This document shows, piece after piece, positions 24,506 to 63,167 of a DNA stretch of 64,000 nucleotides. The stretch covers positions 42,176-106,175 of the forward strand of contig JADFUR010000065.1 of the NCBI GenBank assembly GCA_015222055.1, given 5' to 3'. The notes under the pieces are model-generated. The model worked only from the letters and a program-made list of their open reading frames with translations. It had not been told where the DNA came from and made no database searches. Positions within the stretch are counted from its first letter, which is position 1; every line of letters starts with the position of its first letter. Both the position numbers and the translations under genes were made by a program. The DNA comes from Bacteroidota bacterium (GTDB taxonomy: Bacteria > Bacteroidota > Bacteroidia > Bacteroidales > B39-G9).

Positions 24506-25453
24506 TTATACTCGTTTTAAAAATCGATTAATATTTTTCTTTATTCTTTCTTCTACACTATTAATATTGTCTTTTATAAATTTCTCACCAATAATACTTT
24601 CATAAAGTTCAATATATCTTTCAGATGTATCTTTAATAATTTCATATGTCATTTCAGGTATTTTTTGTCCATCCTTACCTTGAAAATTATTTTCAATTAA
24701 CCATTGGCGTACAAATTCTTTTGAAAGTTGACGTTGAGCTTGTCCTTTGTTTTGTCTTTCTTCATATCCTTCAGAATAGAAATAACGTGAAGAATCTGGC
24801 GTGTGAATTTCATCAATTAAAAAAATTTGATTATCTTTTTTACCGAACTCATATTTTGTATCAACGAGTATCAAACCTTTATCATCCGCAAGTTTTGTTC
24901 CTCTTCTAAACAATTCAAGTGAATATGTTTCTAATTTTTCATAGTCTTTTTGTGATACTATATTTCTTTTTACAATTTCTTCTTTCGAAATATCCTGATC
25001 ATGACCGACATCTTCTTTTGTTGTAGGAGTTATTATTGGCTTATCAAATTTATCATGTTCTTTCATCCCTTCAGGTAAAGCCACACCACAAATTTCACGC
25101 TTTCCACTTTTATATTCTCTCCATGCATGCCCTGTAAGATAAGCTCTTACAACCATTTCAACCTTAAAAGGCTCAATAAAATAACCAACAGTTACCATTG
25201 GATCTGGTGATGATATCTTCCAATTAGGAACAATATCTTTAGTGGCATCTAAAAATTTTGAAGCAATTTGATTCAAAACTTGTCCTTTAAAAGGGATTGC
25301 TTTAGGCAAAACAACATCAAAGGCCGAAATTCTATCAGTTACAACTATTATAATATATTTATCGTCAATATTATATACATCACGTACTTTGCCTTTATAA
25401 AAACTTTTTTGATTAAAGAAACTGAACCTTGTACCTATAACAGCATCATTCAT
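24506..25453 (-). CDS. purC: Phosphoribosylaminoimidazole-succinocarboxamide synthase
   Basis: 315-aa long-form SAICAR synthetase ([24 protein letters not shown]). Confidence 0.93.
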
Positions 25454-25634
25454 AAGTGCTTATTTTTTATCGTTAAAATTAAAAAAATTATATGCAATAT
25501 AAAAAATTAATATTTTTATTTAAAATTAGTTTTACAAAATTTTAGTTGGAATTTTAACTTTTAAAATTGCAATATTTCTTATTTAAATTATTAAGTCATT
25601 TATAATACAATCATTTTTTTATAAATGCAAAAAA

Positions 25635-49547: not shown

Positions 49548-50188
49548 ATTACTTTTTTGATTTGCCACAATAATCGTTCACGGTCGTATTTAGTTTGCCT
49601 ACCATATGACATAATTCCATTGAGATAAAAATAAGTTTTGGTTTTATCTACATACAAACCAGTTTTGTCCTCAAATTGTAATTGTAAATATCCTTTTAAA
49701 ATATCAGCTGTAATAACATTATTGGTAATAACTAGCTTTGGAGAAATGAATTTTAAAATTTCAGAAAAAACAGATAGGTGTTTATTGTGTAAAGGTTTAA
49801 GTAAACCATTGTCACCTATTAACTCTTTAACAATAATTTTGGCAGTTTTGTAACTCATTTGGAACAAATCACAATGTTCAAACTCTACACCTAAATCATC
49901 AGCGATACTCGAAATGGGTTTGTAGTAACGTTTGTATTGACCATTTCTATCAGGCACCCCATCGCCAAAAATTGCCTGGAATTCTTGTTTAATTTTATGT
50001 TGGATTTCGACTTCGCTAAAACTCGTAATAGCAGGCTTTGGTGTTATGTCGCCCGATGGATTTAGTCCAACGAACAGTATTTTGGCATTGGTATTTAATG
50101 GATGTATAAATGTTGGCATATTTCCCCGAAGATTGTCGGGTAATTGATGCCACCATTCTAATATCTCCTTATTTAAAATCTCTTCCAT
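49544..50188 (-). CDS. Hypothetical 214-aa protein embedded in the type I R-M operon (possible uracil-DNA-glycosylase-superfamily fold)
   Basis: Its start abuts the hsdS stop (TAAATG) and its stop overlaps the hsdR start (ATGA). KILFVGLNPSG resembles UDG/MUG motif A (G-[IL]-NP-[GS]), but this is a weak, memory-based call. Confidence 0.35.
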   Translation of the reverse strand: MEEILNKEILEWWHQLPDNLRGNMPTFIHPLNTNAKILFVGLNPSGDITPKPAITSFSEVEIQHKIKQEFQAIFGDGVPDRNGQYKRYYKPISSIADDLGVEFEHCDLFQMSYKTAKIIVKELIGDNGLLKPLHNKHLSVFSEILKFISPKLVITNNVITADILKGYLQLQFEDKTGLYVDKTKTYFYLNGIMSYGRQTKYDRERLLWQIKKVI

Positions 50189-51925
50189 TTAAACAAACAT
50201 TTTTTGTAATAAACCCTTTTTAAATAATTGTGAATTATCAATTGTTGATTGTAAATTATTTATGCTTTTATCTATTGATGAAAGGAAATTGGCTATTTTT
50301 TGTTGTTCTTCAAATGATGGTATTTTAACATTAATTTTTGAAAAATTACCAACTGATATCGTGAACCTTGTGCTTCCTGTAGAATAACTTGATAGTTGTT
50401 TCAAAACAGATGGAATATTGCAAAAATAATGTGAATACAGTAAGTCAAGTTTTATTTTTGGTCTAAACCTCATTAAATGATAACTAAATAAAGTATCTTC
50501 CAAATCCTCAAAAATTACAACAGAATGACCTATATCAGTGGGCGTTTCAGATGATGGTGTAAACAAAATATCACCTTTTCTTAAATTCGTAGATTTAATT
50601 TGATTTTCTTTTGCGGTAACAATTTGTAAGTTTTCACGAGTAGTGTTGTTAATGTTTTCGTGTCGATAAACATTCATATAATTAACAAGATATATTTGCT
50701 TTTCATTTTCTTTTGAAAGTTTATCTACGCTACTTGTTTGAAATGCACCAATCTCCCCCAACCTCTTCACTTCCCAATCAGGTGGTTCGACAAGCTCACC
50801 AGCCTTATTTTTGATTTTAAACCGTAACTCTTGCGAAAATAATTTTTGCATTACCCCTTTTTTGTATTGCTCTAATTCTGTTTTCTTTTCTTGCAAAAGG
50901 TTTATGCGTTTGTCAACTGCGGTGAGGAAAGTGGCTATGCGGGTTTGTTCTTCCAGAATAGGGACATTTATATCAAGTGTTTTTAATTGACTTGCATACA
51001 AATGAACTACGGAAATACCTTGCGACAATCTTGCGATATTAGTTTTTTGAGCATTATTCAAGTAGTATGATAAAAAAATACCGTCCATCTCAGATTTAAT
51101 AATATTTAAATCTCCACCTAATGCCACACCCGATTTTTCAACGCAAGAAGCAGTTGCAATATCAATTTGAGTTTCCCCAGATGCAGGAATGATAACATCA
51201 TTAGCTTCACTTAATAAAAGTTCTGCTTCATCAATATTTGTTTTTGAAACAATTTCAGTGATTACTTCTGAATATTCCGTATATAATTCTCCGTATCGAA
51301 TACATTCGGTTGCTCCGTCTTCTGAAATATCTGCTTTTGAGATTCCTTTCCCTTTACTAAAAGTAGCAATTGCACCAAGTTTATCAGGATTCCATTCCCC
51401 CTCAAACTCAGGAAACCGTAATTGTGGCACATTGTGGCTGAGCGGAGTCGGGTGGCTGAGCGTAGTTGGGTGGCTGAGCGAAATAGGGTGGCTGAGCGTA
51501 GTCGAAGCCACGTTCTCTTTCGTTTCGGCTCCGCTCAACGACCGTTCACTCCCCGACGACCGTTCACTCCCCGACGACCGTTCTTCCCCCGCTGCCTGAG
51601 CGGAGCCGAAGGCAGCCGATTTAAAAGCTTTATGTGATGTTTCATTCAAACACATGGATAATTCGTGCAATTTTTCCGGCATATTGTTAATCAAAGCTTC
51701 TTTCTTTTTTCTGCTCCATCCTTGCACTTGTTTTTCTCTGTAAAAAGCATTGTCTATTCTGTCGAATTCTTCAAAATAAACTAACTCTACAGGTAAATGT
51801 TTTTTAGTATGATTTGCTCCTTCACCATTTTGGTGTTGATGTAATCTTAGTTCCAGATATTTTGTGCTTCCTGTATAATAACTGTCATCTGAGCACTTTA
51901 AAATATACATATATCCTCTTGTCAT
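50189..51925 (-). CDS. hsdS: GIY-YIG nuclease domain joined in frame to type I specificity subunit HsdS
   Basis: aa 1-~95: GIY-YIG (GYMYILKCSDDSYYTGSTKYLELRLHQH...YREKQVQGWSRKKKEALI). aa ~100-165: repeat-encoded linker. aa 166-578: two-TRD HsdS beginning VPQLRFPEFEGEW. No stop codon between the parts. An in-frame GTG at 51430 could start a conventional HsdS. Confidence 0.85.
   Translation of the reverse strand: MTRGYMYILKCSDDSYYTGSTKYLELRLHQHQNGEGANHTKKHLPVELVYFEEFDRIDNAFYREKQVQGWSRKKKEALINNMPEKLHELSMCLNETSHKAFKSAAFGSAQAAGEERSSGSERSSGSERSLSGAETKENVASTTLSHPISLSHPTTLSHPTPLSHNVPQLRFPEFEGEWNPDKLGAIATFSKGKGISKADISEDGATECIRYGELYTEYSEVITEIVSKTNIDEAELLLSEANDVIIPASGETQIDIATASCVEKSGVALGGDLNIIKSEMDGIFLSYYLNNAQKTNIARLSQGISVVHLYASQLKTLDINVPILEEQTRIATFLTAVDKRINLLQEKKTELEQYKKGVMQKLFSQELRFKIKNKAGELVEPPDWEVKRLGEIGAFQTSSVDKLSKENEKQIYLVNYMNVYRHENINNTTRENLQIVTAKENQIKSTNLRKGDILFTPSSETPTDIGHSVVIFEDLEDTLFSYHLMRFRPKIKLDLLYSHYFCNIPSVLKQLSSYSTGSTRFTISVGNFSKINVKIPSFEEQQKIANFLSSIDKSINNLQSTIDNSQLFKKGLLQKMFV
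51434..51616. repeat. GC-rich tandem and hairpin repeats forming the GIY-YIG/HsdS linker
   Basis: 4 x 18 bp gtggctgagcg-nnnnn-gg (51434-51511, LSHP(T/I)x repeats). About 2.5 x 18 bp cgacgaccgttcactccc (SERSSG repeats). Hairpin gctgcc-tgagcggagccgaa-ggcagc (51591-51616). Confidence 0.85.
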
Positions 51926-51936: not shown

Positions 51937-53508
51937 TTAAAATGGTGTTTCAATATTTAATTCCTCACAAAAACCGGCAATCTCTTTGTTTACCTCTTCT
52001 AAATCATTATTAATAGTTTTCAGATTATCAGAAACCTCTTTTAAATCAACAGGCTCTTCCTCTTCAAAAGTATCAACATATCTTGGAATATTCAGGTTGT
52101 AGTCGTTTTCGGCAATCTCTGCCAAACTTGCTACATAAGAATATTTATCTTTGGTTTGTCTAGAGCGGTAAGTATCAATAATTTCATTTACATCCTCATC
52201 ACGCAATTGGTTTTGGTTACCGTTTTTTACGAAATGCTCATGTCCGCTTGCATCAATAAAAACTACATTTTCATCAGCTTCACGGCATTTTTTAAACACC
52301 AAAATACAAGTAGGAATACTTGTGCCGTAAAAAATATTGGCAGGCAAACCAATAACGGCATCTAAATAATTAAGTTCTTTAATTAAATATTTACGGATAA
52401 CTCCTTCGGCTGCACCTCTAAACAAAACACCATGTGGTGCTACGGTTGCCATTGTTCCGTTGTCTGCCAGTTGGTAAATCATGTGGGTTACAAATGCGTA
52501 ATCGGCTTTCGTCTTGGGTGCTAATCGTCCATATTGACTAAATCTTTCGTCAGTACTGTTTAATGGATTTGTATCACTTTTCCAATGAGCCGAAAATGGC
52601 GGATTGGCAACAACGGCTTCAAATCGTTTATCGAGATGTTGCGGATTTTCCAAAGTGTCTTCTTGCCGTATATCAAACTTACGGTAATGAACATCGTGCA
52701 AAATCATATTCATACGAGCAAGGTTGTAGGTGGTACGGTTTAGTTCTTGTCCGTAAAATTCGCTTACATCACTTACTTCTCTTGCCACACGCAAAAGCAA
52801 AGAACCCGAACCGCAGGTTGGGTCATAAACCGATTTTAATTTTGTTTTTCCTGTAGTAACAATTTTTGCCAGTATTTTAGAAACCTGTTGTGGTGTATAA
52901 AATTCTCCTGCCGATTTTCCTGCACCTGCTGCAAACTTTGCAATCAAATATTCGTAAGCATCTCCCAAAACATCGGCTTCTACATCGTCAAGTTTGAAAT
53001 CTATTTTGTCGAGATGGTTTAATATTTTTACAATTACTTCGTTTCTGGCTCCAACCGTTCTACCGATTTTAGTAGAAGTTAAATCCATATCCTCAAACAA
53101 AGCGTTAAAATCATCTTCCGATTCTGTTCCCATTGTGCTTTGCTCAATTTGGTTCATCACGGCTTGTAAATCTTCAATTATGTAGTTGCTTTCACTTTCG
53201 GTGTCGGCATTTCCTTTTTTTGCAAGTTCAGAAAATAGTTCACTAGGTTTTAAAAAGTAACCCAATTTCATTAAAGATTCTTCTTTTAGGGCATCCAGAG
53301 TTTCTGTGTTGGTTACTTTTTTATAGTCTGTTACTTTCTCTCCTTCAAGTAGCCCATTGGCATATAAATATTGTTTTTCGCTCAGGTATTTATAAAAGAT
53401 AAAACCGAGAATGTAGTCTCGGTAATCGTCTGCACTTATTTTTCCTCTCAGTAGGTTTGCAATTCCCCAAAGTTGAGCTTCCAATATTTTTTTTTGGTCT
53501 TCTGACAT
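51937..53508 (-). CDS. hsdM: Type I restriction-modification N6-adenine DNA methyltransferase subunit
   Basis: HsdM N-terminal domain (LWGIANLLRG), motif I DPTCGSGSLLL, motif IV VANPPFS; 523 aa. Confidence 0.95.
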   Translation of the reverse strand: MSEDQKKILEAQLWGIANLLRGKISADDYRDYILGFIFYKYLSEKQYLYANGLLEGEKVTDYKKVTNTETLDALKEESLMKLGYFLKPSELFSELAKKGNADTESESNYIIEDLQAVMNQIEQSTMGTESEDDFNALFEDMDLTSTKIGRTVGARNEVIVKILNHLDKIDFKLDDVEADVLGDAYEYLIAKFAAGAGKSAGEFYTPQQVSKILAKIVTTGKTKLKSVYDPTCGSGSLLLRVAREVSDVSEFYGQELNRTTYNLARMNMILHDVHYRKFDIRQEDTLENPQHLDKRFEAVVANPPFSAHWKSDTNPLNSTDERFSQYGRLAPKTKADYAFVTHMIYQLADNGTMATVAPHGVLFRGAAEGVIRKYLIKELNYLDAVIGLPANIFYGTSIPTCILVFKKCREADENVVFIDASGHEHFVKNGNQNQLRDEDVNEIIDTYRSRQTKDKYSYVASLAEIAENDYNLNIPRYVDTFEEEEPVDLKEVSDNLKTINNDLEEVNKEIAGFCEELNIETPF

Positions 53509-53935: not shown

Positions 53936-56062
53936 TTATTTAAACATTCCTTTATCTCTTTTTTTTACACCTTTCGATTTTCCAAGTTTGTCTAACTCTA
54001 ATTCTTCTTTCAGAAAATCTTTTATATAAGACTCTATATTTGAAACATTATACTTGATGTTTAATTTTTCTTTTACAAATGGAATAATATCTGATAACTT
54101 CGAATGTCCATTAATATTAATAAATTCTATTATAACAGTAGATAAATCTTTCTTAGTCTCTTTATTAACAGGAATATCTTTTAATTGTAGAGTGCCATCA
54201 CAACTTGTTTTTTTATCCCAACCATATTTTGAACAACCATAAAAAGGTTTATTATCCTTTTTTCTATACCTAAGTATCATTTCACTTCCACATTTCGGGC
54301 ATTTTGGATTATCATTTGTTTGCTGAGAACTGACAGGTTTCTGCTCAATAACAGAACTCCTTTTTTCTTTGTTAGGTTGAACTTGCTTTACTGATTGTGT
54401 CTTTATTCGTTTTGTTGGTGTTTCTTCATCCTTAATTTTTACAGGTCGTTTTACCAAACTTTCAATATTAAATGAAACTTCTAAATGAGAATTATGTAAT
54501 TTATCTTGTACGTCTTGATATAATCTACGAGTACTTTCAATATTCTCTTTTTCAAATAATAAATTTGTTATTGTTTTAGGCAAAGCAGAAAATCCGAAAA
54601 TACTACCCCAAAGACCAAGTGCAATCCTATAATCTGAAAGTTGATTCTTTCTTAAACTATCAATTAATTTCTCTGCTTCTTCTCCTTTTTGAATGAATAA
54701 AGCGATAGATTGCAAAAGTATGCTTGAATGACTTTTTAAGTCAAATGGTTGATAATTTTCAATATTATCCATTAAACTATTAAAGTAATCTCTCTCCTTG
54801 CTATTTTCCCAGTTTGGAATATATTCTTTCAGAATAGCACCAACTTTAAATGCTAAATTTATTTTTTCTTCTTTAAAAGTCTGAATGTTATTTATTGGGT
54901 AGTCAAAAATATCGTTAATAATATTTCTGTATAAATCTGCTTTGCCTTTTTCAAAAAAATTATCTTCCAATTGTGTTATTTTAAATCCATTAAAATTGAG
55001 ATTTTCAATTAGAGATAATGGATCTGTTTTTTTTCTTTCTTCTTTCTTTAACTCAGAAACATATCTCGTTATTCTACTTGTCTTTACTGATAGTATCTGT
55101 TTTGAATATGGATTGGTTAAGTATTCTTTAAGGTCATCAATTAGAAATAAAATATCATTTTCACTGTCTTTAATTTTATTTTCTAATTGCTGATAAACAG
55201 ATTCTTTTTCTAACTTTAACCCTTTTAAGAAATTAACAAGTTTTGACTGCTCGTTAATATTTGAATCGTCTATATATTTGGCTTTTACTAATTCTTCTTT
55301 TAATACTTTTTTATTTCCAATTGCATTATCAATACTTACTTTAAAGCTCTCTAATTTATCAATTATATTTTGAGAGGAACTCGTTTGCTTTCCTTTTTGA
55401 TTAAAGAACTCTAAAATTAATTGTGAGATTAAAATAAATTCTTCTTTTAATGTTTTTTCTTTTATCGAAGATGAAAGTATTATACCTAGAAAGTATGAAT
55501 AATAAAACCCTTTCAGTTTATTTGTTTTAGAATCTATATCTATTTGTTTAGAAACTTCATTGTTAGGCAAATCTGATAATTTTGAGATAAATGATTTATC
55601 CCAATCAAACGAAGCATTATTATTACTTATTAAAGAAATAGCTTTTTTATAAACAGGCAATAATTTTGTTCCAATACTTGGCTCTACTTTAATCAAAGTT
55701 GTATTTAATTCTTTTTCCTTAAAAAACAAAAATCTAACCTTACTTGGATGAAAATATATAGTTTTATTAAGTTGAAAAATTTTTATTCCATTATTTTCAG
55801 AACTATTAGTAATGCTATCTATTATTAATTCTTTTGAAATTTCAATAATTAGTGGATATTCGTCAAAATCAGTTTCGCCAATTTTAAATAAAGGGATTTT
55901 ATCGTAAGCAAGAATTGAATTTATAAAAGGATTAGGTTCAACTTTTGTAAAACGCTTATATCCGAATTTTCTATTTGTATAGAAAGCTTCTGGCGATATT
56001 GATTCAGTCGTCAATATATTATTAAAATTCAATGTGTTTGTTGCAATATATAGTTTTTCCAT
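53936..56062 (-). CDS. 708-aa protein of unknown function with C-terminal topoisomerase-type C4 zinc finger (gene 4 of candidate system)
   Basis: CPKCGSEMILRYRKKDNKPFYGCSKYGWDKKTSCDGT (nt 54191-54301) matches the Topo C4 zinc-finger pattern. I recognise nothing in the first ~580 aa. Its start is 2 nt after the helicase stop. Confidence 0.8.
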   Translation of the reverse strand: MEKLYIATNTLNFNNILTTESISPEAFYTNRKFGYKRFTKVEPNPFINSILAYDKIPLFKIGETDFDEYPLIIEISKELIIDSITNSSENNGIKIFQLNKTIYFHPSKVRFLFFKEKELNTTLIKVEPSIGTKLLPVYKKAISLISNNNASFDWDKSFISKLSDLPNNEVSKQIDIDSKTNKLKGFYYSYFLGIILSSSIKEKTLKEEFILISQLILEFFNQKGKQTSSSQNIIDKLESFKVSIDNAIGNKKVLKEELVKAKYIDDSNINEQSKLVNFLKGLKLEKESVYQQLENKIKDSENDILFLIDDLKEYLTNPYSKQILSVKTSRITRYVSELKKEERKKTDPLSLIENLNFNGFKITQLEDNFFEKGKADLYRNIINDIFDYPINNIQTFKEEKINLAFKVGAILKEYIPNWENSKERDYFNSLMDNIENYQPFDLKSHSSILLQSIALFIQKGEEAEKLIDSLRKNQLSDYRIALGLWGSIFGFSALPKTITNLLFEKENIESTRRLYQDVQDKLHNSHLEVSFNIESLVKRPVKIKDEETPTKRIKTQSVKQVQPNKEKRSSVIEQKPVSSQQTNDNPKCPKCGSEMILRYRKKDNKPFYGCSKYGWDKKTSCDGTLQLKDIPVNKETKKDLSTVIIEFININGHSKLSDIIPFVKEKLNIKYNVSNIESYIKDFLKEELELDKLGKSKGVKKRDKGMFK

Positions 56063-56064
56063 AA

Positions 56065-57138
56065 TTATAATCTTCTGCTTGATTTACTTATTAATGAAGT
56101 TTCATATAAGTTATCTGATACGTCATTAAAAAATGGTGACAAATCTCCTGAATGCATTATAAACAATGATTGATAAGAACGTGTTATCGCAACATATAAT
56201 GGGCTTCTATAATCTTCGTCAGAAACAGTACAATTTGGAATAAAAACTGCTTCAAATTGTAAACCTTTACTACTATGATATGTTGTCAATTTAGGTTTGT
56301 CTGTACTAAAATTTAAAGTCATCTTACTTGCTCCTCCTTTTATGTCATATTTAGCTTCAACATCAATTCCTTTTTGAGCAATGTACTCTTCTGCATATTT
56401 TACGTCTGTATTATTTCTGAAAAATATCCCTACATCTTCAAATTGTCGATTTTTAATTATTTCAATAATCGCATCTAGCTGTAAAATAAGATTATTATAA
56501 AGCAAGACTTTTGGCAATTCTGTTCCTTCATTACGGCATCTCAATTCTAATTCATCATCAGAATTTGTAATTTGTTCAGCTAATCTTGCAATCTTTTTTG
56601 GCAACCTATGATTGAATACTAATTGCTCACTTGGAAAACTAGTTTGAGCAGCTATCTGCTCCATTGATATTGGTTCTGGCGTTCTAAACTTATAAATTTG
56701 TTGAGCACTATCACCGTACATTATTAGAGCTTTATTAGCCTTTGATTTAAATATGTCAATATCTTCAGCTGCAAAATCTTGCGCCTCATCAACTATTATG
56801 TAATCTGCTGAAGGTGCATTTTCGTGTTTTATCCAAGTTCCATTCTCCATTGTCCAACGCCAACGCCACTTATCATAATGAAGAACTCTATCACTTCTCA
56901 ATCCAATGTCGGTGATTCCATCTTTCATATATTGTTTAAGTGTCTTTGTAAATAGGATAAAATAAAAACTACCCATGTTTTCTTCTTGGATTTGTTTTAC
57001 TTTCCACAAAGCTAAAATTGACTTGCCGCTTCCTGCACAGCCTTTTACTAAAAATGATTTGTCAGTCCTTCTTCGAATCACTTGTTCTTGATACCCATCA
57101 AGCTCAGATTCATTGATGTAAAATGATTTTTTTGGCAT
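56065..57138 (-). CDS. Compact UvrD-like SF1 helicase/ATPase (gene 3 of candidate system)
   Basis: Walker A GCAGSGKS, Walker B IIVDEAQDF, motif III YGDSAQQIY, YHSSKGLQFEAVFI, motif VI YVAITRS; only 357 aa. Confidence 0.85.
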   Translation of the reverse strand: MPKKSFYINESELDGYQEQVIRRRTDKSFLVKGCAGSGKSILALWKVKQIQEENMGSFYFILFTKTLKQYMKDGITDIGLRSDRVLHYDKWRWRWTMENGTWIKHENAPSADYIIVDEAQDFAAEDIDIFKSKANKALIMYGDSAQQIYKFRTPEPISMEQIAAQTSFPSEQLVFNHRLPKKIARLAEQITNSDDELELRCRNEGTELPKVLLYNNLILQLDAIIEIIKNRQFEDVGIFFRNNTDVKYAEEYIAQKGIDVEAKYDIKGGASKMTLNFSTDKPKLTTYHSSKGLQFEAVFIPNCTVSDEDYRSPLYVAITRSYQSLFIMHSGDLSPFFNDVSDNLYETSLISKSSRRL

Positions 57139-57150
57139 TTCTATTTTATA

Positions 57151-58155
57151 TTAAATAATACTCTGTTTATTAACATCGTGTTTCTTCAAATTCTGTTTTA
57201 CTATATTCTCCGAATAATTTGCATAACAATAAGTACAAAGATGATTGCAAGTGTTATACATTCCAATATCTTTACTTACGATACAACCACAAGCCTTTCT
57301 TTGCCCCTTGTCTTTTAATTTTATGTTACTAGAATAATCATTATCAAACAATGATAGCATTGGATTACTTAAACCTAACCAATCAAGAATTTTAGGGTCA
57401 TCTTTTCCTATTTTATATATTAATTCATCATCAATACATCTGTTATGCTTAATGCTGAATTTTTCTAAATCAACTTTTTCGGCACAAGTCGAAAGTGATA
57501 ATTTCCAAGATTTATTTAAATACACAATTTTTTCAGAAAATTCATCAATTTCAGATTGTGTAAACTCTCTGTATGATTCATTTGTTTTTGATAAGTTAGA
57601 TTTAACTTTTTTATATAATTCAATATCTGCAAAACTGAATACTAACTTTTCTGTATGTTGATATATTTGATTTCCAATATTTTTAATTTTTGAAATTAAA
57701 TTGTCAATTGTTATTGAAGAACTTAGAATTAACGGGTCAAAACGCCAAATAACTTTTTCTTTTCCAATCTGATTTGATAAATTAATAAACGTTTCTATTC
57801 TTGTATCAAGTTTTGGTACATTTGGCTCTAAGTTTTCTTTTACGTAATCGTTTAGAGTATATTGAAAATAAAATTTAATTCCCCTTTTATCAAGTTCTTT
57901 CAAATGTGGAATTATTGGTTTTGGGTTTTTTGTCCAAAAAACAATGATTTTAGTTTCTTCAAAAGACACATACTGTTCTTTTCTATTAAATGGGTTTATC
58001 CAAGTGATATAACCTTTTTCAAGTCGATTCATAAACCAACGTGAATAAAAAGCTGGAATATCAGTTGAACGACTTGCTGAAATTACAAAAGGAAGAATTG
58101 CTTCAACCGTTTCGCCTTTATCATTGATTATATTTTTTTTATCCCAAACTTTCAT
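57151..58155 (-). CDS. DUF1848 family protein with C-terminal radical-SAM-like CX3CX2C cluster (gene 2 of candidate system)
   Basis: ISASRSTDIPAFYSRWFMNRLEKGY...IVFWTKNP...FYFQYTLNDY...VIWRFDPLI...QRKACGC...CNHLCTYCYAN matches my recollection of DUF1848 end to end. The Cys triad is at nt 57226-57249. Confidence 0.75.
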   Translation of the reverse strand: MKVWDKKNIINDKGETVEAILPFVISASRSTDIPAFYSRWFMNRLEKGYITWINPFNRKEQYVSFEETKIIVFWTKNPKPIIPHLKELDKRGIKFYFQYTLNDYVKENLEPNVPKLDTRIETFINLSNQIGKEKVIWRFDPLILSSSITIDNLISKIKNIGNQIYQHTEKLVFSFADIELYKKVKSNLSKTNESYREFTQSEIDEFSEKIVYLNKSWKLSLSTCAEKVDLEKFSIKHNRCIDDELIYKIGKDDPKILDWLGLSNPMLSLFDNDYSSNIKLKDKGQRKACGCIVSKDIGMYNTCNHLCTYCYANYSENIVKQNLKKHDVNKQSII

Positions 58156-58158
58156 AAT

Positions 58159-59439
58159 TTATATTTTATATGCTGATTGTGTATTTGAAGTAGAAGAAAT
58201 AAAGTAACAATATTTTTGATTTCCGATATTATCCCAACCAATTACATTTCCTATATTATCTATTTTTGATAATATCAAATTAACAAATTTACTTTTTCCT
58301 ATTATTCTATAAGTAACTTTTGTTCTGTCATTTTTCTTTTTACTATGAGTAACTACAAAATGATTATTACTAAAACAATCTTGTTTGCAAATACTATCAA
58401 ATTTGGCACAACTTGTTGGAATAAGAGTTTTGTATGTACCTTTATTTTCTTGAATAAACCTATTTGTCTGTTTATTTAGAAGTATTGGCATATAATCAAC
58501 TTCTATTTTCTTTGTTACGTCAAGCATTAATAAAAGCCCTTCATTATTCAGATATTTTGCAAAATGGTTATAGAAATTGAAATATGAATCTCTGTCTTTT
58601 GTAATTATTTCATTTATCATCTTTGATGAAATAATGAAATCAAAATTTGGTTCAAAAAATTGCTTTGAGTTCTCATATAAATCTGTTATCGTTTCAAAAG
58701 CAACATAATGACAATTAAGACTTATGTTTAAATTATATTTTAATTGAATATGAAATACTATCTTTTCAAGGAATTTTAACGCTTCTTTGTTTCCATCAAC
58801 TGCAACAATATTGAAGTTAGCTTTTTTTGAAATATTTTCAATCAGGCTTAGTAGTAGTCCTGATAAATTTCCGCCAGTACCTGAACCAATATCAAGTATG
58901 TTAATTTCTTCTTGTTCTTGATATGATTTTTCAATTATTTCATTTTGTATAATATTATTGAATATGGAATACGTTTCAGCAAAACTTCTTGGGAAATATG
59001 TACCTATATAAATTAGAACATCCCCTTTTTTATGGTTTAAGTTTTTGTTGAATTTTTTAAAATTGGGTGCGAAGCTTGCATTTAATTTATTAAAAATATA
59101 ATCATCTATGAATTTAGGTAACGTAATATCCTTTTGTAATTCTTTTGACTTAAGCTTTTTTATAGATTTAATGGTTCTTCCATTTGCTCCAACAAACCAA
59201 AATATTTTTCGTGAAGTTTGTTGTACTTCCTTGTTTAAGAATTTTGATAATTTTCCAATTTGTTCTTGCTCAATTTTCTTTTCAAGTAATTCAATCTCAC
59301 ATAAAAAATCAAATTGGCTTTCAGAATATTCAATTGATTCTTCTTTTGAAAAAACAGATATATGTAATTCAGAATCCCCAAAAATTATTTTGGAAATTTC
59401 TTTTACATTGTTTTCTAATATCTGCTTTTCGTTTCTCAT
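58159..59439 (-). CDS. Class I SAM-dependent methyltransferase-like protein with ~180-aa unknown N-terminal region (gene 1 of candidate system)
   Basis: Motif I INILDIGSGTGGN, acidic beta-2 end VAVDGN, FDFIISS, LLLMLDV. No NPPY/DPPY/SPPY or PC-type DNA-methyltransferase catalytic motif. Confidence 0.7.
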   Translation of the reverse strand: MRNEKQILENNVKEISKIIFGDSELHISVFSKEESIEYSESQFDFLCEIELLEKKIEQEQIGKLSKFLNKEVQQTSRKIFWFVGANGRTIKSIKKLKSKELQKDITLPKFIDDYIFNKLNASFAPNFKKFNKNLNHKKGDVLIYIGTYFPRSFAETYSIFNNIIQNEIIEKSYQEQEEINILDIGSGTGGNLSGLLLSLIENISKKANFNIVAVDGNKEALKFLEKIVFHIQLKYNLNISLNCHYVAFETITDLYENSKQFFEPNFDFIISSKMINEIITKDRDSYFNFYNHFAKYLNNEGLLLMLDVTKKIEVDYMPILLNKQTNRFIQENKGTYKTLIPTSCAKFDSICKQDCFSNNHFVVTHSKKKNDRTKVTYRIIGKSKFVNLILSKIDNIGNVIGWDNIGNQKYCYFISSTSNTQSAYKI

Positions 59440-59497
59440 TATTTTAATTCAATTTTTCTGTCTATTCGGGTCTTTCTTTGTATGAACGCCAACACTT

Positions 59498-59525
59498 AAA
59501 TAAGACACCCCAGTGTATCTTATTT
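59498..59525 (+). repeat. 28-nt hairpin motif, copy 2 (aaataagacaccccagtgtatcttattt)
   Basis: 25/28 identical to 44612-44639 in the same orientation. Lies 59-86 nt upstream of the start of the four-gene operon, which is on the opposite strand. Confidence 0.75.
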
Positions 59526-59799
59526 CCTTTATAAGTTTATTTCAATTTACATCAAATCTTATAAGAAAGTAAATTTATAAAAAAATAAACTATTGTGCGG
59601 CTTCTTGTGAATGTTAAAAAACAGAAATTGATTTTCAATTTCTAAAATAATTATTTTAAAATTCTTGAGTATTTATCATTTAAAAAAAAACTGTATCAAT
59701 TATAAAACGCCCAATCCCGTTTATTACAATTATAGTAATATAAGATTTGCCATTAAAAAGTGGCATGAACTTAAAAGCTGTAGAAAAAATTCGGTTTTT

Positions 59800-59970
59800 G
59801 ATATAACAAAGTGTAGCAAAAAAGGCTTTATTCTAGATACAGTTTTTTATTACTTTGGTAAATTTATAACTATTGTATGAGATAAAAAATATTTTTTCTG
59901 GATATTATTTGATTTCTGTGCATTAATTTTTTAAAAAAAAAGGCGAGTCATAGACTACACCAAGTAGGGG
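59800..59970. repeat. ~165-bp direct repeat, copy 1
   Basis: Shares a perfect 55-nt core (ggtaaatttataactattgtatgagataaaaaatattttttctggatattatttg, 59857-59911) and diverged flanks with 60610-60768. Confidence 0.85.
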
Positions 59971-60186
59971 TATAAAATTTGGCGGTATGAAACGTTGGGG
60001 ATTGCTAACTACTTTCCTTGTCCAGTTACAAAAAAATTTAAGCGGGCAGAAGTCTTTAAAAGCATTGCAATTCTAATAATTATTTTTATGCACGTTATTT
60101 ATATCCTTTTTCACTTAAAATACTATTAATTTTTCAATTTAATAGAGTACAAAATGAGTTCTTACAGTAGGATAATTTCAACTAGG

Positions 60187-60772: not shown

Positions 60773-60808
60773 AAAAAAAAATGGTGCAAGCGAAAACGCT
60801 TGCACCAT
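60773..60808 (-). terminator. Rho-independent terminator of the UvrD/PcrA gene
   Basis: Minus strand: atggtgcaagcg-tttt-cgcttgcaccat followed by T8, 23 nt past the stop. Confidence 0.8.
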
Positions 60809-60830
60809 TTTAAATTTTACTTTAAAAAAA

Positions 60831-63167
60831 TCAATATCTTAAAATTCTCAATTTAGCAAATTTCAACAACAGTTCCTTCTGACCTGATTTTTGAAAAAAC
60901 ACCTTTGCTTTAATGTTTGGGAATTCTCCTTCGAGGCTAATTACTTTTCCAGCACCAAAACGCTGATGTTCGACATTCATTCCCATTTGAATTTTTTTCG
61001 GGTCGTCAGCAACAAAACCTTCATCAGCTACTCTCTTAGGTTTAGCATCTTGCAATTTAGTGAATTTTTTATCAGGTTCTATGCTTACTGTTGATGGTTT
61101 TGCCTTTGAGGCATTTGACTTATTCTTGTAATTATATTTAGGTTTAAATTTGGGTTTAAAATCATTAAAATCAGTATTCTCTTGTTTAATATCAGATTCT
61201 TCTTCAGGCATTTCTAAATATTTGACATCAATATCCTTTATAAAACGACTTGGACGACAATCTGACAACACACCCCATTTGTAACGATTTAAAGCATATG
61301 AAATTTGAACTTGTGTCTCTGCACGTGTTATCGCAACATAAAACAATCTTCGCTCCTCTTCTAATTCCTGTCTTGTCGCTGTTGACATGTGCGAAGGAAA
61401 AAGCTCTTCCTCAACTCCAACAATAAATACATATTTAAACTCCAAACCTTTGGCAGAATGGATTGTCATTAAAGCAACTTTATTAAAATCTTCCTCTTTT
61501 TCATTATCAACATTTGTGAGCAATGATACATTTTGCAGATATTGGTCAAGAGTTACCAGCTTATCTTTATTCTCGTCATTCTCTTCAAAATCTTTAATAG
61601 CATTTAAAAGTTCTTGAATATTATCCTGTTTAACAATGTTTTCTGACGATTTTTCAGCACTCAAATCATTTATTATTCCTGATGTTTTTGCTATTGAATA
61701 TGCAAAATCGTAAGCTGATGTTTCTAATGCTTTATCTGAATTTTCTTTAATAAAATTTATAAAATTATTTATTTTAAGAAATGCTCCTTGGTTAATTTCT
61801 AATCCGTATTTTTGAGCATTAACTGCAATATCCCAAAGGTTCAAATTATTATTATTGGCCGCCAATGTTATTTTGGTAAAAGTTGTTTTGCCTATTCCTC
61901 GTGCAGGATAATTAATTATTCGCTTAAACGATTCATTATCGTTATGGTTAACAATAAGTCTGAAATATGCAATCAAATCTTTTATTTCCTTACGTTGATA
62001 AAAAGATTGTCCTCCGTAAATTTTGTAGGGAATATCAAACTTTCTAAACGATTCTTCAAAAACCCGCGACTGAGCATTTGTTCTATATAATATTGCAAAA
62101 TCTTTATAATCAATGTGTTTATCTAATTTTGTGTTAATTATTGAACTAGCTACTTCAAAGCCTTCTTCTTTATCTGTAAGAGCTCTAACAACTTTTATCT
62201 TCTCACCTTGTTCCTTTTTGCTAAAGACAACTTTTTCAATCTGGTCTTTATTCTTTTTTATCAAACTATTTGCTGCATCTACAATAGTTTGCGACGAGCG
62301 ATAATTCTGTTCAAGTTTAAAAAGCTTATATTCAGGGTAATCATTTCTGAAATTTAAGATATTCTCAATTTTAGCACCTCTAAAAGAGTAAATACTTTGA
62401 GCATCATCTCCAACAACACAAATATTTTTATGCTTTTCTGCTAATTTTTTGACAATCAAATATTGAGAAAAATTAGTATCCTGATACTCATCAACAAGAA
62501 TATAAGAAAACTTTTTTTGGTATTTATTAAGTACTTCGGGGGAATTACGAAACAAAATATTAGTATTCAACAACAAATCGTCGAAATCCATTGCATCTGC
62601 TCTTTTGCACTTACTTGAATAAATTTCATAGATACGAGCTATTTCAGGTTTGTTGCTACTTCTGTCACGTTCAATTACTTGTGCATTACTTTTATACGCA
62701 TCAGCAGTAATTAAATTATTTTTAGCTGATGATATTCTGTTTAAAACAGCATTAACAGGATATTCTTTTTCATCAAGATGTAAATCTTTAATTATTGATT
62801 TTATAAGACTTTTAGAATCGGCTGAATCATAAATCGTATAATTAGAAGTAAATCCTAGTTTATCAGCTTCGAACCGTAAAATCTTAGAAAAAATTGAGTG
62901 AAAAGTACCCATCCATAAATTTCTGGAAGCATCACTACCTACCAACGACACAATACGTTCTTTCATTTCTTTTGCAGCTTTGTTGGTAAAAGTTAAAGCT
63001 AAAATTGAATTTGAATAAACACCTAATGTCAATAAATGTGCAATTCGATAAGTCAAAACCCTTGTTTTTCCTGAGCCTGCACCGGCTATGACCAATTCTG
63101 GCCCTTTAACATTTGTTACCGCTTCACGTTGCACACTGTTTAATTCTTCTAAATAGCTCTTATCCAC
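60831..63167 (-). CDS. pcrA: ATP-dependent DNA helicase, UvrD/PcrA family
   Basis: AGAGSGKTRVLTYRIAHL, LTFTNKAAKEM, VDEYQDTN, GDDAQSIYSFRGA, QNYRS, HSAKGLEF, YVAITRA; 778 aa. Confidence 0.93.
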   Translation of the reverse strand: MDKSYLEELNSVQREAVTNVKGPELVIAGAGSGKTRVLTYRIAHLLTLGVYSNSILALTFTNKAAKEMKERIVSLVGSDASRNLWMGTFHSIFSKILRFEADKLGFTSNYTIYDSADSKSLIKSIIKDLHLDEKEYPVNAVLNRISSAKNNLITADAYKSNAQVIERDRSSNKPEIARIYEIYSSKCKRADAMDFDDLLLNTNILFRNSPEVLNKYQKKFSYILVDEYQDTNFSQYLIVKKLAEKHKNICVVGDDAQSIYSFRGAKIENILNFRNDYPEYKLFKLEQNYRSSQTIVDAANSLIKKNKDQIEKVVFSKKEQGEKIKVVRALTDKEEGFEVASSIINTKLDKHIDYKDFAILYRTNAQSRVFEESFRKFDIPYKIYGGQSFYQRKEIKDLIAYFRLIVNHNDNESFKRIINYPARGIGKTTFTKITLAANNNNLNLWDIAVNAQKYGLEINQGAFLKINNFINFIKENSDKALETSAYDFAYSIAKTSGIINDLSAEKSSENIVKQDNIQELLNAIKDFEENDENKDKLVTLDQYLQNVSLLTNVDNEKEEDFNKVALMTIHSAKGLEFKYVFIVGVEEELFPSHMSTATRQELEEERRLFYVAITRAETQVQISYALNRYKWGVLSDCRPSRFIKDIDVKYLEMPEEESDIKQENTDFNDFKPKFKPKYNYKNKSNASKAKPSTVSIEPDKKFTKLQDAKPKRVADEGFVADDPKKIQMGMNVEHQRFGAGKVISLEGEFPNIKAKVFFQKSGQKELLLKFAKLRILRY

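Follow-up and report, generated by a model that had tools for sequence, protein, structure and literature searches.

A conserved four-gene cassette encoding SAM-methyltransferase-fold, DUF1848, UvrD-like and zinc-ribbon proteins is a candidate bacterial immune system

Organization of the cassette

The window analyzed here, a 64,000-nucleotide stretch from a Bacteroidota bacterium (contig JADFUR010000065.1), contains four closely spaced minus-strand genes and, next to them, a type I restriction-modification (R-M) system. The features are as follows.

g1, 58159..59439, minus strand: 426 aa, class I SAM-methyltransferase-fold protein
g2, 57151..58155, minus strand: 334 aa, DUF1848 protein
g3, 56065..57138, minus strand: 357 aa, minimal SF1 (UvrD-like) ATPase/helicase
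g4, 53936..56062, minus strand: 708 aa, multidomain protein with a zinc ribbon
hsdM, 51937-53508, co-directional with the cassette
59440..60186, minus strand: 747-nt AT-rich non-coding stretch upstream of g1

All four reading frames start with ATG, and their coordinates and the gaps of 3, 12 and 2 nt between them match those of an earlier note on this DNA exactly. That note gave the distance between the cassette and hsdM as 428 nt; by our recount it is 427 nt. The type I R-M neighbor is genuine, with hsdM (E 1e-138) and hsdR (E 2e-138) both recognized in profile searches. The 747-nt region upstream of g1 has no minus-strand ORF of 80 aa or more, no match in an Rfam search and no meaningful repeats, and is presumably where the operon promoter lies. 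The cassette is low in GC relative to its flanks in this window and is an insertion between housekeeping genes, as is the cassette at locus L096. We note that pcrA also lies near the cassette.

The cassette proteins

The g1 protein has the class I SAM motifs reported earlier, ILDIGSGTGGN at aa 181 and VAVDGN at aa 212, and the reported lack of DNA-methyltransferase catalytic motifs was borne out, with neither amino- nor C5-methyltransferase motifs and no [DNS]PP[YFWH], PC or ENV in the sequence. Class I methyltransferase matches in Pfam are all sub-threshold (the best is CheR, E 2.8e-4, scoring 20.8 bits where 27 are required); they are to protein, RNA and small-molecule methyltransferases, and no Pfam DNA-methyltransferase family was matched. 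A PDB profile search found no relative, PADLOC gave no match even at E 0.1, and similarity to the neighboring HsdM is not significant. A DNA-methyltransferase identity for g1 is not demonstrable. Its family comprises 775 clusters when grouped at 50% identity, of which 414 have E<=1e-30; the core spans approximately aa 105-426, and in relatives the N-terminal ∼100 aa are optional. The SAM-binding motifs are invariant across the family (alignment A1), as are Y144-G-T-Y-F-P-R-S152, E155, G185xG187xG189G190, K273, E277, D307, T309, K311, C344, C351, C355, H365, D371 and C411; the C-terminal region is Cys-rich. About one quarter of the g1 relatives are fused to a NERD, PIN or HEPN nuclease, and among 37 long members the fused nucleases are NERD (19), PIN_4 (8), HEPN_Swt1 (1) and PIN_9 (1). 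PIN and HEPN domains in such fusions generally act as RNases.

The earlier assignment of g2 to DUF1848 over its full length stands (PF08902, E 3.1e-97), although the spacing of its C-terminal cysteines was misstated, being CGC-x11-CNHLCTYC and not x14. This CxxxCxYC motif conforms to the canonical CxxxCx(aromatic)C pattern and is accompanied by four more invariant cysteines, so that all seven (Cys 224, 240, 289, 291, 303, 307 and 310) are invariant. There is a weak Pfam Radical_SAM match at aa 299-318 (E 0.023; 15.3 bits against a threshold of 29.5), and the AF2 model is a (beta/alpha) barrel (pLDDT 90.6, pTM 0.90) with the Cys motif at the C-terminus, not after beta-1. Foldseek comparison of the model with the PDB returned generic TIM barrels alone (E>=4e-3); the top 50 matches include no radical SAM enzyme, and a PDB-sequence profile search found nothing. 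We regard g2 as a putative non-canonical Fe-S/radical-SAM-like enzyme, an identity drawn from the Cys motif and the barrel fold and not from similarity to a radical SAM enzyme of known structure.

The core motifs attributed to g3 are all present: Walker A (GCAGSGKS), II (DEAQD), III (GDSAQ), V (TYHSSKGLQ) and VI (VAITR). It exceeds the Pfam gathering thresholds for UvrD_C_2, UvrD-helicase, UvrD_C, AAA_19 and Viral_helicase1, and is without large accessory domains. Its best PADLOC matches are GajB (E 3e-22), the NERD+UvrD candidate C3a187 (E 2.5e-18) and RTasHel (E 1.2e-17).

For g4, the earlier note recognized a topoisomerase-type zinc finger and nothing else, and Zn_ribbon_Top1 is indeed its sole Pfam match, which at 27.3 bits falls short of the cut-off of 32. 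The same profile is found in 25 of 59 g4-family members (best E 3.8e-13). The protein can be divided as follows.

about aa 1-200: N-domain, conserved, novel alpha/beta
helical body: hypervariable segment at aa 220-360, conserved segment at aa 420-500
aa 539-583: disordered linker
aa 588-621: C4 zinc ribbon
aa 634-701: C-terminal winged helix

The ribbon comprises the only four cysteines of g4 (588, 591, 610 and 621). A family search gave 100 matches, and N12, S23, Y28, G34, K133, G185, Y190 and G490 are invariant (alignment A2). When the AF2 model (pLDDT 86.5, pTM 0.70) was compared with the PDB and BFVD, the C-terminal ∼75 aa matched winged helices with a probability of ∼1.0, and beyond the winged helix there was nothing at E<0.07; neither PADLOC nor NCBIfam has a match to g4. 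The models of g2 and g4 are confident, and Foldseek found no close solved relative of either. No nuclease domain is recognizable in g1, g2, g3 or g4 of the window, and the residues that are invariant in the N-domain of g4 (N, S, Y, G, K, Y) do not resemble a metal-dependent nuclease site.

Conservation and gene order

Homologs of g1 were used to collect 80 independent loci. The four families, which the earlier note proposed as a candidate system, do occur together outside this genome: all four are present at 69 of the 80 loci, in several phyla, and at further metagenomic loci. The intact cassette, with its gene order shuffled, is found in at least 70 other genomes. The order among the complete loci is g1-g3-g4-g2 in 63 (62 with all four genes co-directional), g2-g1-g3-g4 in four (three co-directional) and g1-g2-g3-g4 in two (both co-directional), and 67 of the 69 are therefore co-directional throughout. 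Median intergenic distances do not exceed 9 nt, or the genes overlap; together with the adjacency of four families at 69 of 80 loci, this is far beyond chance. Adjacency of g3 to g4 is kept in every complete locus (69/69), with a largest gap of 55 nt in the 71 loci where g3 and g4 are both present, and loci L036, L056, L063, L069, L076 and L081 have g1 and g2 only. These two observations support the division into genes 1-2 and genes 3-4 suggested in the earlier note, and the loci with g1 and g2 alone indicate that a helicase/DNA-binder module has been joined to a core of two genes. In agreement with such a core, g1 adjoins every assessable DUF1848 gene of the clade at 50-60% identity. Median identity across loci falls from 52% for g2, the most conserved component, to 38% for g3, 33% for g1 and 29% for g4, rates that, with the hypervariable middle of g4, fit an enzyme core with fast-evolving recognition parts.

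The loci span Bacteroidota, Ignavibacteria and Chlorobi relatives, Firmicutes, Campylobacterota, Desulfovibrionales, Succinivibrio and Caldisericota, and distribution over these phyla is patchy. The cassette was found in only two of 2.9 million viral contigs.

Genomic context

In line with the suggestion that this is a defense locus, the cassettes usually sit on mobile elements or among defense genes, not in housekeeping operons. The flanks hold Mob_Pre relaxases, integrases, BREX genes (BrxL), McrBC, HsdR, MmeI-type R-M systems, SoFic and NsnB as well as the PADLOC candidates PDC-S01/S02. In a sample of 122 nearest neighbors we counted BrxL three times, PDC-S01 four times, and PDC-S02, SoFic and NsnB twice each, these being raw tallies for the sampled neighbors. 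McrBC, a PD-(D/E)xK restriction endonuclease and HsdR are among the defense neighbors at sampled loci, and at another locus an MmeI-type R-M system and a HATPase_c_3 ATPase lie beside the cassette.

Interpretation

The four genes form a single horizontally mobile accessory cassette, most likely an anti-phage or anti-plasmid defense system that uses SAM chemistry on nucleic acid. That it serves in conflict or defense is probable; this reading comes from the context of the genes, and we infer the function itself. A self-marking mechanism, in which g1 and g2 mark host DNA and g3 and g4 attack unmarked DNA, is a tentative proposal with somewhat less than an even chance of being correct. Here, g1 and g2 would act together to tag host DNA with a SAM-derived mark, with g1 binding SAM and the target and g2 providing Fe-S/radical chemistry, which would account for a g1 protein without the ordinary DNA-methylase catalytic motifs. 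A g3-g4 complex would load on DNA through the zinc ribbon and winged helix of g4, the g3 ATPase would drive translocation while the fast-evolving middle region of g4 reads the DNA, and the complex would then block or destroy DNA lacking the mark. In many relatives the NERD, PIN or HEPN domains fused to g1 may supply or back up killing; the version in the window has no recognizable nuclease, and the conserved g4 N-terminal domain is therefore the candidate effector. An abortive or RNA-directed mechanism would suit the PIN and HEPN fusions no less well.

In an alternative, the modification is a weapon or abortive response and not a self-mark. Here g3 and g4 would sense invading or damaged DNA and release g1 and g2 to modify invader DNA, or host or phage RNA such as tRNA, thereby blocking replication or translation, with the fused nucleases as co-effectors; alternatively, g2 would be an eraser that keeps g1 harmless before infection, as in the writer/eraser toxin-antitoxin system DarT-DarG. 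This would agree with the resemblance of g1 to non-DNA methyltransferases and its lack of DNA-methyltransferase motifs, with the typical RNase effectors PIN_4, PIN_9 and HEPN_Swt1, with the JGI label 'DNA repair photolyase' for DUF1848, and with the ability of the g1-g2 pair to occur alone, like toxin-antitoxin modules. The partners of more divergent DUF1848 genes are AlkB and a remote g1-like gene in Planktothrix and ADP-ribose hydrolase and Sir2 in Roseburia, which hints at 'eraser/repair' and not 'writer'. However, these are single loci of a divergent clade with statistically weak g1-like matches (E 0.002-0.03), g2 evolves more slowly than is usual for an antitoxin, and g3 and g4 intervene between g1 and g2 in 63 of 69 loci, unlike the arrangement of tightly coupled toxin-antitoxin pairs; we judge this alternative unlikely. 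It is rather improbable that the cassette serves a mobilizable or integrative element instead of the host, either modifying or escorting element DNA past recipient restriction or excluding competing elements. In its favor, 10 loci have a Mob_Pre relaxase immediately upstream, the flanks often contain integrases and DUF3987 primase-helicase, DUF6043 and DUF6371 proteins, L045 and L046 are identically scoring cassettes in Bacteroides xylanisolvens and a MAG labeled 'Eubacterium', and the ssDNA-binding annotation of the topoisomerase-type zinc ribbon would suit a conjugative ssDNA intermediate. However, mobile elements routinely carry defense systems, and a context of this kind cannot tell the two readings apart; moreover, many loci, the window included, have no relaxase or integrase nearby and lie amid housekeeping or defense genes, and nuclease fusions on g1 suit attack better than protection.

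The cassette might also have branched off, without a reverse transcriptase (RT), from the class 1 UG/Abi (DRT-like) systems UG25/UG35, the ancestral methylase-RT fusion having lost, or never had, its RT, with g4 in its place. PADLOC models of RT-associated proteins match g2 (RTasDUF1848, E 3.3e-41) as well as g3, and the UG25/UG35 partnerships (PMC9226505) cover three of the four component types. We consider this improbable: no RT domain is detected in any of the four proteins, the contiguous cassettes have no room for one, the longest of the best 150 g1-family representatives is 772 aa with none RT-sized, and the g4 fold is not RT-like by Foldseek. In a comparison with the PADLOC models, the absence of matches to g1 would likewise make any relationship distant if the UG25/UG35 RT models include the fused methylase. 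A DNA-repair, RNA-modification or stress operon with no role in phage or plasmid conflict is very improbable. It would be in keeping with the photolyase label, the high conservation of g2, a UvrD-like helicase with pcrA nearby in the window, and the AlkB linkage at one divergent locus, but the distribution is patchy, the context differs from genome to genome and associates the cassette with mobile elements and defense genes, g1 carries nuclease fusions, g4 is hypervariable, and GC is low against the flanks, all of which, to our knowledge, are atypical of core repair or modification pathways. Least probable of all is that the cassette is a module of the adjacent type I system that works only with HsdMSR. 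In the window hsdM is co-directional and no terminator-like site lies in the intervening sequence, and in L084 the cassette also adjoins a type I HsdR; however, the 25 families most often found in the 122 nearest neighbors do not include Hsd genes, a type I system is absent from the vicinity of most loci, and type I R-M linkage is not conserved across loci.

Relationship to known systems

The computational tests proposed beforehand all came out in favor of a candidate defense system, and nothing named as counting against it was found. The cassette is a strong candidate for a bacterial immune system not described before, and one that lends itself to testing. PADLOC has no named system for the four-gene set, NCBIfam no name for g1, g2 or g4, and Pfam no entry naming the set, and a literature search yielded no matching system. 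The earlier description of the system as undescribed holds in that sense, although DUF1848 and UvrD-like genes were already known as partners of the methylase-RT fusions UG25 and UG35, and the components are thus not wholly undescribed. Mestre et al. (2022; PMC9226505) report that N-terminal methylase-RT fusions partner DUF1848 (UG25) or a UvrD-like helicase (UG35), and rated the defense prediction for both as inconclusive. UG25 and UG35 have an RT, whereas the four proteins of the cassette have no detectable RT domain. These systems, themselves uncharacterized, are nonetheless the nearest precedent, and the pairings of a methyltransferase with DUF1848 and of a methyltransferase with UvrD recur in them.

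Organization of the cassette

Four minus-strand open reading frames lie in the window at the coordinates proposed in the earlier note, and re-measurement of their spacings gave the same values of 3, 12 and 2 nt. The domain assignments made there for the four products agree with profile searches, and the quoted motifs are all present, although the cysteine-rich tail of g2 reads CGC-x11-CNHLCTYC and not CGC-x14-CNHLCTYC. The genes, referred to together as the cassette, are as follows.

58159-59439, minus strand: g1, SAM-methyltransferase-fold protein, 426 aa
57151-58155, minus strand: g2, DUF1848 protein, 334 aa
56065-57138, minus strand: g3, UvrD-like helicase, 357 aa
53936-56062, minus strand: g4, zinc-ribbon protein, 708 aa

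Downstream of the cassette is a genuine type I restriction-modification (R-M) system, in which profile searches identify hsdM, hsdS, a 214-aa open reading frame and hsdR. The hsdM gene is co-directional with the cassette as claimed, although the gap between them is 427 nt rather than 428 nt; a terminator-like site was looked for in this gap and none was found. Together the cassette and the R-M genes make up a ∼13-kb island with a lower GC content than its surroundings, bordered by housekeeping genes for serine dehydratase, a DEAD-box helicase and LysRS on one side and for PcrA on the other. In searches for non-coding elements, Rfam matches did not rise above chance and meaningful repeats were absent, and a sigma-70 promoter scan is uninformative for Bacteroidota.

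The HsdS protein (50189-51925, minus strand) has an architecture that is unusual for this family, with a GIY-YIG nuclease domain (PF01541, E 5e-16) at its N-terminus (aa 4-75) joined to the Methylase_S target-recognition domains. The 214-aa open reading frame between hsdS and hsdR (49544-50188, minus strand) shares 25 nt with the predicted start of hsdR (49568). Pfam and NCBIfam give no match for it, and it may contribute a further component to the R-M locus. Directly downstream of pcrA (60831-63167), a perfect hairpin with a 15-bp stem and T-runs on both strands (60778-60811) is likely a bidirectional intrinsic terminator insulating the region upstream of the cassette. A second low-GC stretch at ∼20000-26000 (0.24-0.27, compared to ∼0.31-0.34 elsewhere), with strong positive AT skew, may be another horizontally acquired segment.

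Conservation and distribution

Homologous loci were located with a degenerate pattern derived from the g1 family alignment and scanned against one genome per GTDB species. The scan yielded 135 confirmed g1 relatives, from which 80 loci were kept and their open reading frames searched with the four window proteins. All four genes are adjacent in 69 of the 80 loci, and in 67 of these complete loci they are co-directional. The other 11 are either cut by contig ends (about six, including L071, where g2 is truncated) or contain g1 and g2 only (L036, L056, L063, L069 and L076). Gene order is variable: g1-g3-g4-g2 is found in 63 of the 69 complete loci (62 fully co-directional), g2-g1-g3-g4 in four, and the order seen in the window, g1-g2-g3-g4, in two. 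The g4 gene directly follows g3 in all 69, with a maximum gap of 55 nt among the 71 loci having both genes. Median gaps within the cassette are 9 nt or less, or the genes overlap, and a few loci have larger g1-to-g3 or g4-to-g2 gaps that hold extra open reading frames. The constancy of the content while the order is shuffled argues for a functional system rather than a chance neighbourhood, and the cassette is composed of a two-gene core, g1 and g2, plus an inseparable g3-g4 pair.

The hosts are mostly Bacteroidales, with further representatives in the Ignavibacteria/Kapaibacteria, Chloroherpeton, Lachnospiraceae, Oscillospiraceae, Helicobacteraceae, Desulfovibrionales, Succinivibrio and Caldisericota. 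The cassette is widespread in human-gut and rumen Bacteroidales, and its carriers include cultured gut Bacteroides xylanisolvens, Alistipes putredinis, Phocaeicola and Parabacteroides. The same cassette was recovered in separate look-ups that started from DUF1848 or g1 homologues, and a DUF1848 gene at first taken for an 'orphan' was found to be preceded by an unannotated homologue of g1 (E 6e-92). Median identity across loci is 52% for g2, 38% for g3, 33% for g1 and 29% for g4, such that g2 is the slowest-evolving component.

Two loci assigned to different phyla, one in Bacteroides xylanisolvens XB1A (L045, NC_021017.1) and one in 'uncultured Eubacterium sp.' UMGS1550 (L046), have equal gene lengths and near-identical scores, with those for g3 differing slightly; this reflects either a recent horizontal transfer or a mis-binned contig. 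Three loci (L059:12168-13907, L065:12175-13902 and L072:12121-13884) have a shorter protein of ∼575-587 aa in the place of g4, which matches g4 weakly (E 2e-6 to 5e-8) and has the look of either a diverged form of g4 or a substitute for it; in L059 it is followed by an extra 256-aa gene.

Genomic context

The nearest flanks of the 80 loci are heterogeneous, and are rich in mobility and defence functions as judged by counts at the sampled loci. A Mob_Pre relaxase gene is directly upstream in 10 loci, and other mobility-type flanks encode DUF3987 primase-helicases, DUF6043 and DUF6371 proteins and Xre regulators. Among the 122 nearest neighbours are genes for BrxL (three), PDC-S01 (four), PDC-S02, SoFic, NsnB and PDC-M55A (two each), as well as YhcG-type nucleases. 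Among the loci found by look-up, the L084 cassette sits between genes for McrBC, a PD-(D/E)xK restriction endonuclease, HsdR and STAND/helicase proteins, and that of L098 is preceded by integrases and followed by an HATPase_c_3 ATPase and an MmeI-type R-M system. Those of L096 and L099 are clean insertions between housekeeping genes. Patchy spread over multiple phyla, variable insertion sites, and defence or mobility neighbours, by which we define a defence-island or mobile accessory cassette operationally, are thus all observed here. The cassette is a conserved, mobile, four-gene accessory unit with a two-gene core.

Linkage to type I R-M genes was seen in the window and in the look-up loci L084 and L085 only, and no Hsd family ranks in the 25 commonest families of the 122 nearest neighbours of the 80 loci. 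In IMG/VR the cassette is present on just 2 of 2.9 million contigs, and a PHROGs search returned nothing for g1 or g2, which argues that it is a feature of cells or of mobile elements and not of phages. A phage origin was rejected on the same grounds; the 'Bacteriophage sp.' records are unverified faecal scaffolds.

In 18 of the 80 loci a gene for a Schlafen/AlbA_2 protein with an HATPase_c_4 domain (∼520-555 aa; for example L020:15753-17417) begins 3 nt after g2, and in 15 loci an Xre-type HTH gene lies behind it. The same protein is found at the look-up locus L091 (10047-11609), there with a Fic-like domain at its C-terminus. A Bacteroidales subtype may have it as a fifth component or as a regulator.

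The g1 family

Clustered at 50% identity, the g1 family comes to 775 clusters, of which 414 have E≤1e-30. The window protein is 100% identical to IMY72_08490 of a Bacteroidetes MAG, the source of the window. Motif I (ILDIGSGTGGN, at aa 181) has invariant glycines at G185, G187, G189 and G190, as looked for in a class I SAM-methyltransferase. In the VAVDGN motif at aa 212, which supplies the acidic residue expected at the end of beta-2, G216 is at least 90% conserved, and D215 appears in neither the invariant nor the conserved list. Also invariant are a YxGTYFPRSxxE block, K273/E277 and D307xTxK, together with a C-terminal set, C344/C351/C355/H365/C411, that looks like a metal site. No Pfam methyltransferase model matches g1 above its gathering threshold, the best, CheR, reaching 20.8 bits where the cut-off is 27; some homologues carry precomputed PF13847 matches.

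The catalytic motifs expected of DNA amino- (N6-A/N4-C) and C5-cytosine methyltransferases, (D/N/S)PP(Y/F/W), PC and ENV, are absent from g1, and the position of motif IV is occupied by an invariant S-S-K273-x3-E277. Profile searches found no solved relative. A gamma-class DNA amino-methyltransferase was considered and set aside, with hhalign against the adjacent HsdM giving E 0.12; the sole resemblance is the placing of GTYFPRS relative to motif X.

Many long members of the family are fused to nucleases. Of 37 long representatives, 19 have an N-terminal NERD nuclease domain, eight a C-terminal PIN_4 domain, one HEPN_Swt1 and one PIN_9; g1 of the window has no nuclease domain. In other conflict systems, variable nuclease fusions of this kind have been interpreted as having an effector or co-effector role (PMC10853773). 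Both the context of the cassette and its domain fusions are typical of such systems.

The DUF1848 protein and its wider family

The g2 protein matches DUF1848 (PF08902) over its entire length (profile positions 1-262 of 262; E 3e-97; 325.9 bits against a cut-off of 30.5). Its radical-SAM-type motif, C303-NHL-C307-T-Y309-C310, is invariant in sets of 21 and 42 sequences, and all seven cysteines are invariant, comprising CxxxCxYC at 303-310 plus C224, C240, C289 and C291. A confident AF2 model (pLDDT 90.6, pTM 0.90) is a (beta/alpha) barrel. The cysteine motif is C-terminal and does not follow beta-1, which departs from the radical-SAM core arrangement, and the match to Pfam Radical_SAM reaches 15.3 bits (E 0.023), below the cut-off of 29.5. 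From the motif, the barrel fold, this weak Pfam match and the COG-derived label 'DNA repair photolyase', which DUF1848 carries because its cysteine motif and barrel resemble those of radical SAM enzymes, we infer a possible radical-SAM identity for g2. The best 50 Foldseek matches of the model in the PDB include no radical SAM enzyme and consist of generic TIM barrels (E≥4e-3, TM≤0.38), and profile and single-sequence searches of PDB sequences returned nothing; on these results an SPL-like radical SAM enzyme was rejected as a candidate.

DUF1848 is a large family with at least 8000 candidates, and members at 28-46% identity have no g1, g3 or g4 alongside by standard HMM search. Three divergent members are found in other settings. 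On a Planktothrix agardhii plasmid (L087:6998-9544, NZ_LR882935.1) the DUF1848 gene is convergent to a 292-aa gene with g1-like motifs, itself co-directional with and 16 nt from a gene for an AlkB dioxygenase; a 1208-aa protein beside this DUF1848 was considered as a reverse transcriptase but is not recognisable as one. On a plasmid of Roseburia sp. 831b (L088:5322-7942, NZ_CP135163.1) a DUF1848 gene whose product is 30% identical to g2 forms a tight co-directional trio with genes for a protein-ADP-ribose hydrolase and a Sir2-family protein, which hints at an adduct-processing role. The third, a 255-aa DUF1848-like gene on a megaphage-sized 735-kb 'uncultured phage' record (L090:4410-8396, LR756501.1), lies between a Methyltransf_14/23 C-methyltransferase-type gene and an FkbM-type methyltransferase gene.

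Unannotated genes adjoining two of the divergent members have g1-like motifs, with weak statistics (hhalign E 0.03, for the Planktothrix gene, and 0.002; hmmsearch E 2e-5 in a database of only five sequences). As a lead, this suggests that the pairing of a methyltransferase-like protein with DUF1848 may predate the four-gene cassette, and that DUF1848 may group with enzymes acting on base or ADP-ribose adducts.

The g3 and g4 proteins

The SF1 motifs of g3 are all present (GCAGSGKS, DEAQD, GDSAQ, TYHSSKGLQ and VAITR), and it passes the cut-offs of five Pfam SF1/UvrD-type models. At 357 aa it is without the full-length 1B/2B architecture (about 650-780 aa; PcrA of the window is 778 aa), and is predicted to be a minimal SF1 motor. 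It scores far below the cut-offs of the NCBIfam equivalogs uvrD, rep, pcrA and HelD, with 31 bits against 911 for pcrA. Its closest matches in PADLOC are GajB, a NERD+UvrD candidate and a reverse transcriptase-associated helicase model.

In Pfam, g4 matches a topoisomerase-type zinc ribbon at a sub-threshold score. In a confident predicted model (pLDDT 86.5, pTM 0.70), an alpha/beta N-terminal domain and a long helical body are followed by a disordered linker, which leads to the C4 zinc ribbon and finally a winged helix. Conservation peaks in the N-terminal domain and at residues ∼420-500, and residues 220-360 are hypervariable and rich in indels. Foldseek searches of the PDB and BFVD with this model found no relative beyond the winged helix. 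The N-terminal ∼520 aa were given no identity by Pfam (59 family members) or by a profile against PDB sequences, and a PHROGs search gave a weak match over aa 506-627. As far as the model goes, the fold of the N-terminal domain may be that of a new effector or reader. The conserved ESISP...R motif prompted an ADP-ribosyltransferase-like reading, which was dropped as no fold match was found.

Possible functions

Every computational test run, including co-occurrence, genomic context and PADLOC, came out in favour of the proposal in the earlier note that the cassette is a candidate for an undescribed defence or modification system. In such a system g1 and g2 would act on nucleic acid in a SAM-dependent manner, possibly with radical chemistry, and g3 and g4 would serve as a DNA-tracking sensor or effector. 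We rank self-marking with restriction first, albeit tentatively and at somewhat below even probability, because it is the commonest logic of methyltransferase-plus-helicase defence and because the NERD-g1 fusions mimic nuclease-methylase enzymes. The main rival, which we regard as unlikely, is that the modification is itself the weapon, or that g1 and g2 are a writer/eraser pair; the non-DNA-methyltransferase character of g1, the RNase-type domains fused to it and the eraser-type partners of the divergent DUF1848 genes all point this way. Smaller shares go to an anti-restriction function serving mobile elements, a derivative of the UG25/UG35 systems without the reverse transcriptase, housekeeping repair, and an accessory role in R-M, the type I R-M linkage of the cassette not being conserved.

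A new form of epigenetic immunity is in our estimation unlikely, though it has a real chance. Here g1 and g2 would carry out a new nucleic-acid modification chemistry, and g3-g4 would read the mark and distinguish self from invader. The SAM-binding methyltransferase-fold protein g1 would be joined with a new class of Fe-S/radical enzyme, DUF1848 being predicted as a barrel with a C-terminal CxxxCxYC and a second four-cysteine site.

If it is a defence system, the cassette adds a widespread, unnamed immune module that often rides mobilizable elements and that bears on phage therapy, microbiome engineering and the spread of defence in gut Bacteroidales. It would also provide a first functional handle on DUF1848, whose conserved cysteines suggest unusual Fe-S/radical chemistry on nucleic acids, and the same handle on the unexplained methylase, DUF1848 and UvrD partners of the UG25/UG35 reverse transcriptases. 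Cultured gut Bacteroidales allow direct tests of this widespread, uncharacterised and structurally novel cassette.

Comparison with known systems

No named equivalent of the cassette was found. PADLOC v2 matched neither g1 nor g4 and assigned the four-gene set to no named system, and NCBIfam has no name for g1, g2 or g4. A literature search on DUF1848/PF08902 and the component combinations found no named system, returning just Mestre et al. 2022, the unrelated Ophion and a Dnd reappraisal.

In its inferred logic, a modification module plus an ATP-driven DNA-tracking or restriction module, the cassette resembles BREX, DISARM, Druantia type II, Dnd/Ssp, Dpd and MADS, which share its placement in defence islands and mobile elements. 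The signatures of BREX, DISARM, Druantia, Hachiman, Dnd/Ssp, Dpd and MADS are, respectively, PglX with PglZ, DrmA/B with DUF1998, DruE, HamA with DUF1837, DndA-E or SspA-D, DpdA, and MAD1-8. None of these signature proteins was found in a PADLOC scan of g1-g4, nor were BrxC, BrxL, DrmC, DruM or any other Dnd, Ssp, Dpd or MAD protein. The NCBIfam matches to MADS and BREX fall to the neighbouring hsdM and hsdS, far below the cut-offs. In contrast to the cassette, none of BREX, DISARM, Druantia type II, Dnd/Ssp, Dpd and MADS includes a DUF1848 Fe-S-type enzyme.

Like Gabija, g3-g4 is a two-gene module of a helicase and a larger partner, and g3 matches GajB models (best E 3e-22), mainly over the motif II-IV region. 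However, g4 is not an OLD/TOPRIM nuclease by PADLOC, Gabija is without SAM enzymes, and g3 at 357 aa is much shorter than the GajB models listed, which have 369-685 positions and mostly 500-685. No GajA was found among the four proteins in PADLOC, where g2 matches just RTasDUF1848. The NERD-g1 fusions resemble type IIG/IIL enzymes in that a single polypeptide carries both a PD-(D/E)xK-type nuclease and a domain for SAM binding, whereas g1 differs from these gamma-class enzymes in having no target-recognition domain and no NPPY, and is always accompanied by its DUF1848 partner.

Radical SAM enzymes occur in defence, as in pVips and Ophion. A (beta/alpha) barrel bearing a CxxxCx(aromatic)C motif is shared by g2 with spore photoproduct lyase, RlmN/Cfr, prokaryotic viperins and OpnA of Ophion, although g2 differs from the nucleic-acid radical SAM enzymes in the C-terminal position of its motif and in its partners, and no solved radical SAM enzyme is among its Foldseek or profile matches. 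Ophion combines its radical SAM protein with PHP and PRTase components (bioRxiv 10.1101/2025.09.30.679545).

The closest parallels are with the UG25 and UG35 reverse transcriptases of class 1 UG/Abi. UG25 enzymes, which are N-terminal methylase-reverse transcriptase fusions, associate with a DUF1848 cluster, and UG35 enzymes associate with a UvrD-like helicase (Mestre et al. 2022, NAR, PMC9226505); the prediction of a defence role was rated 'inconclusive' for both (PMC9226505). This is the only literature found that places DUF1848 in a defence setting. As in the cassette, a methyltransferase domain is paired with DUF1848 (UG25) or with a UvrD-like helicase (UG35), and the PADLOC models from these associations match g2 (PDLC03815 RTasDUF1848, E 3.3e-41) and g3 (PDLC03802 RTasHel, E 1.2e-17). 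The cassette differs in having no reverse transcriptase and no alpha-Rep domain, in that its methyltransferase-fold protein stands alone or is nuclease-fused, in combining DUF1848 and the helicase, and in its additional g4. No reverse transcriptase match was found in g1-g4 with Pfam or PADLOC, and no reverse transcriptase family is among the 25 commonest of the 122 nearest neighbours; the cassette is therefore not a member of the UG25/UG35 systems. A link of g1 to UG25-type reverse transcriptases found no support either in PADLOC, where g1 has no match at E≤0.1, or in the best 150 g1-family representatives, none of which is of reverse transcriptase size; g1 may or may not be homologous to the methylase domain of these fusions. 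Part of the component set is already noted beside UG25/UG35 reverse transcriptases, with which the cassette plausibly shares a module, and UG25 may have recruited the same core of a methyltransferase-fold enzyme and DUF1848. The cassette is a candidate modification-plus-motor defence set that, from its sequences, would be built from parts non-homologous to those of the named systems.
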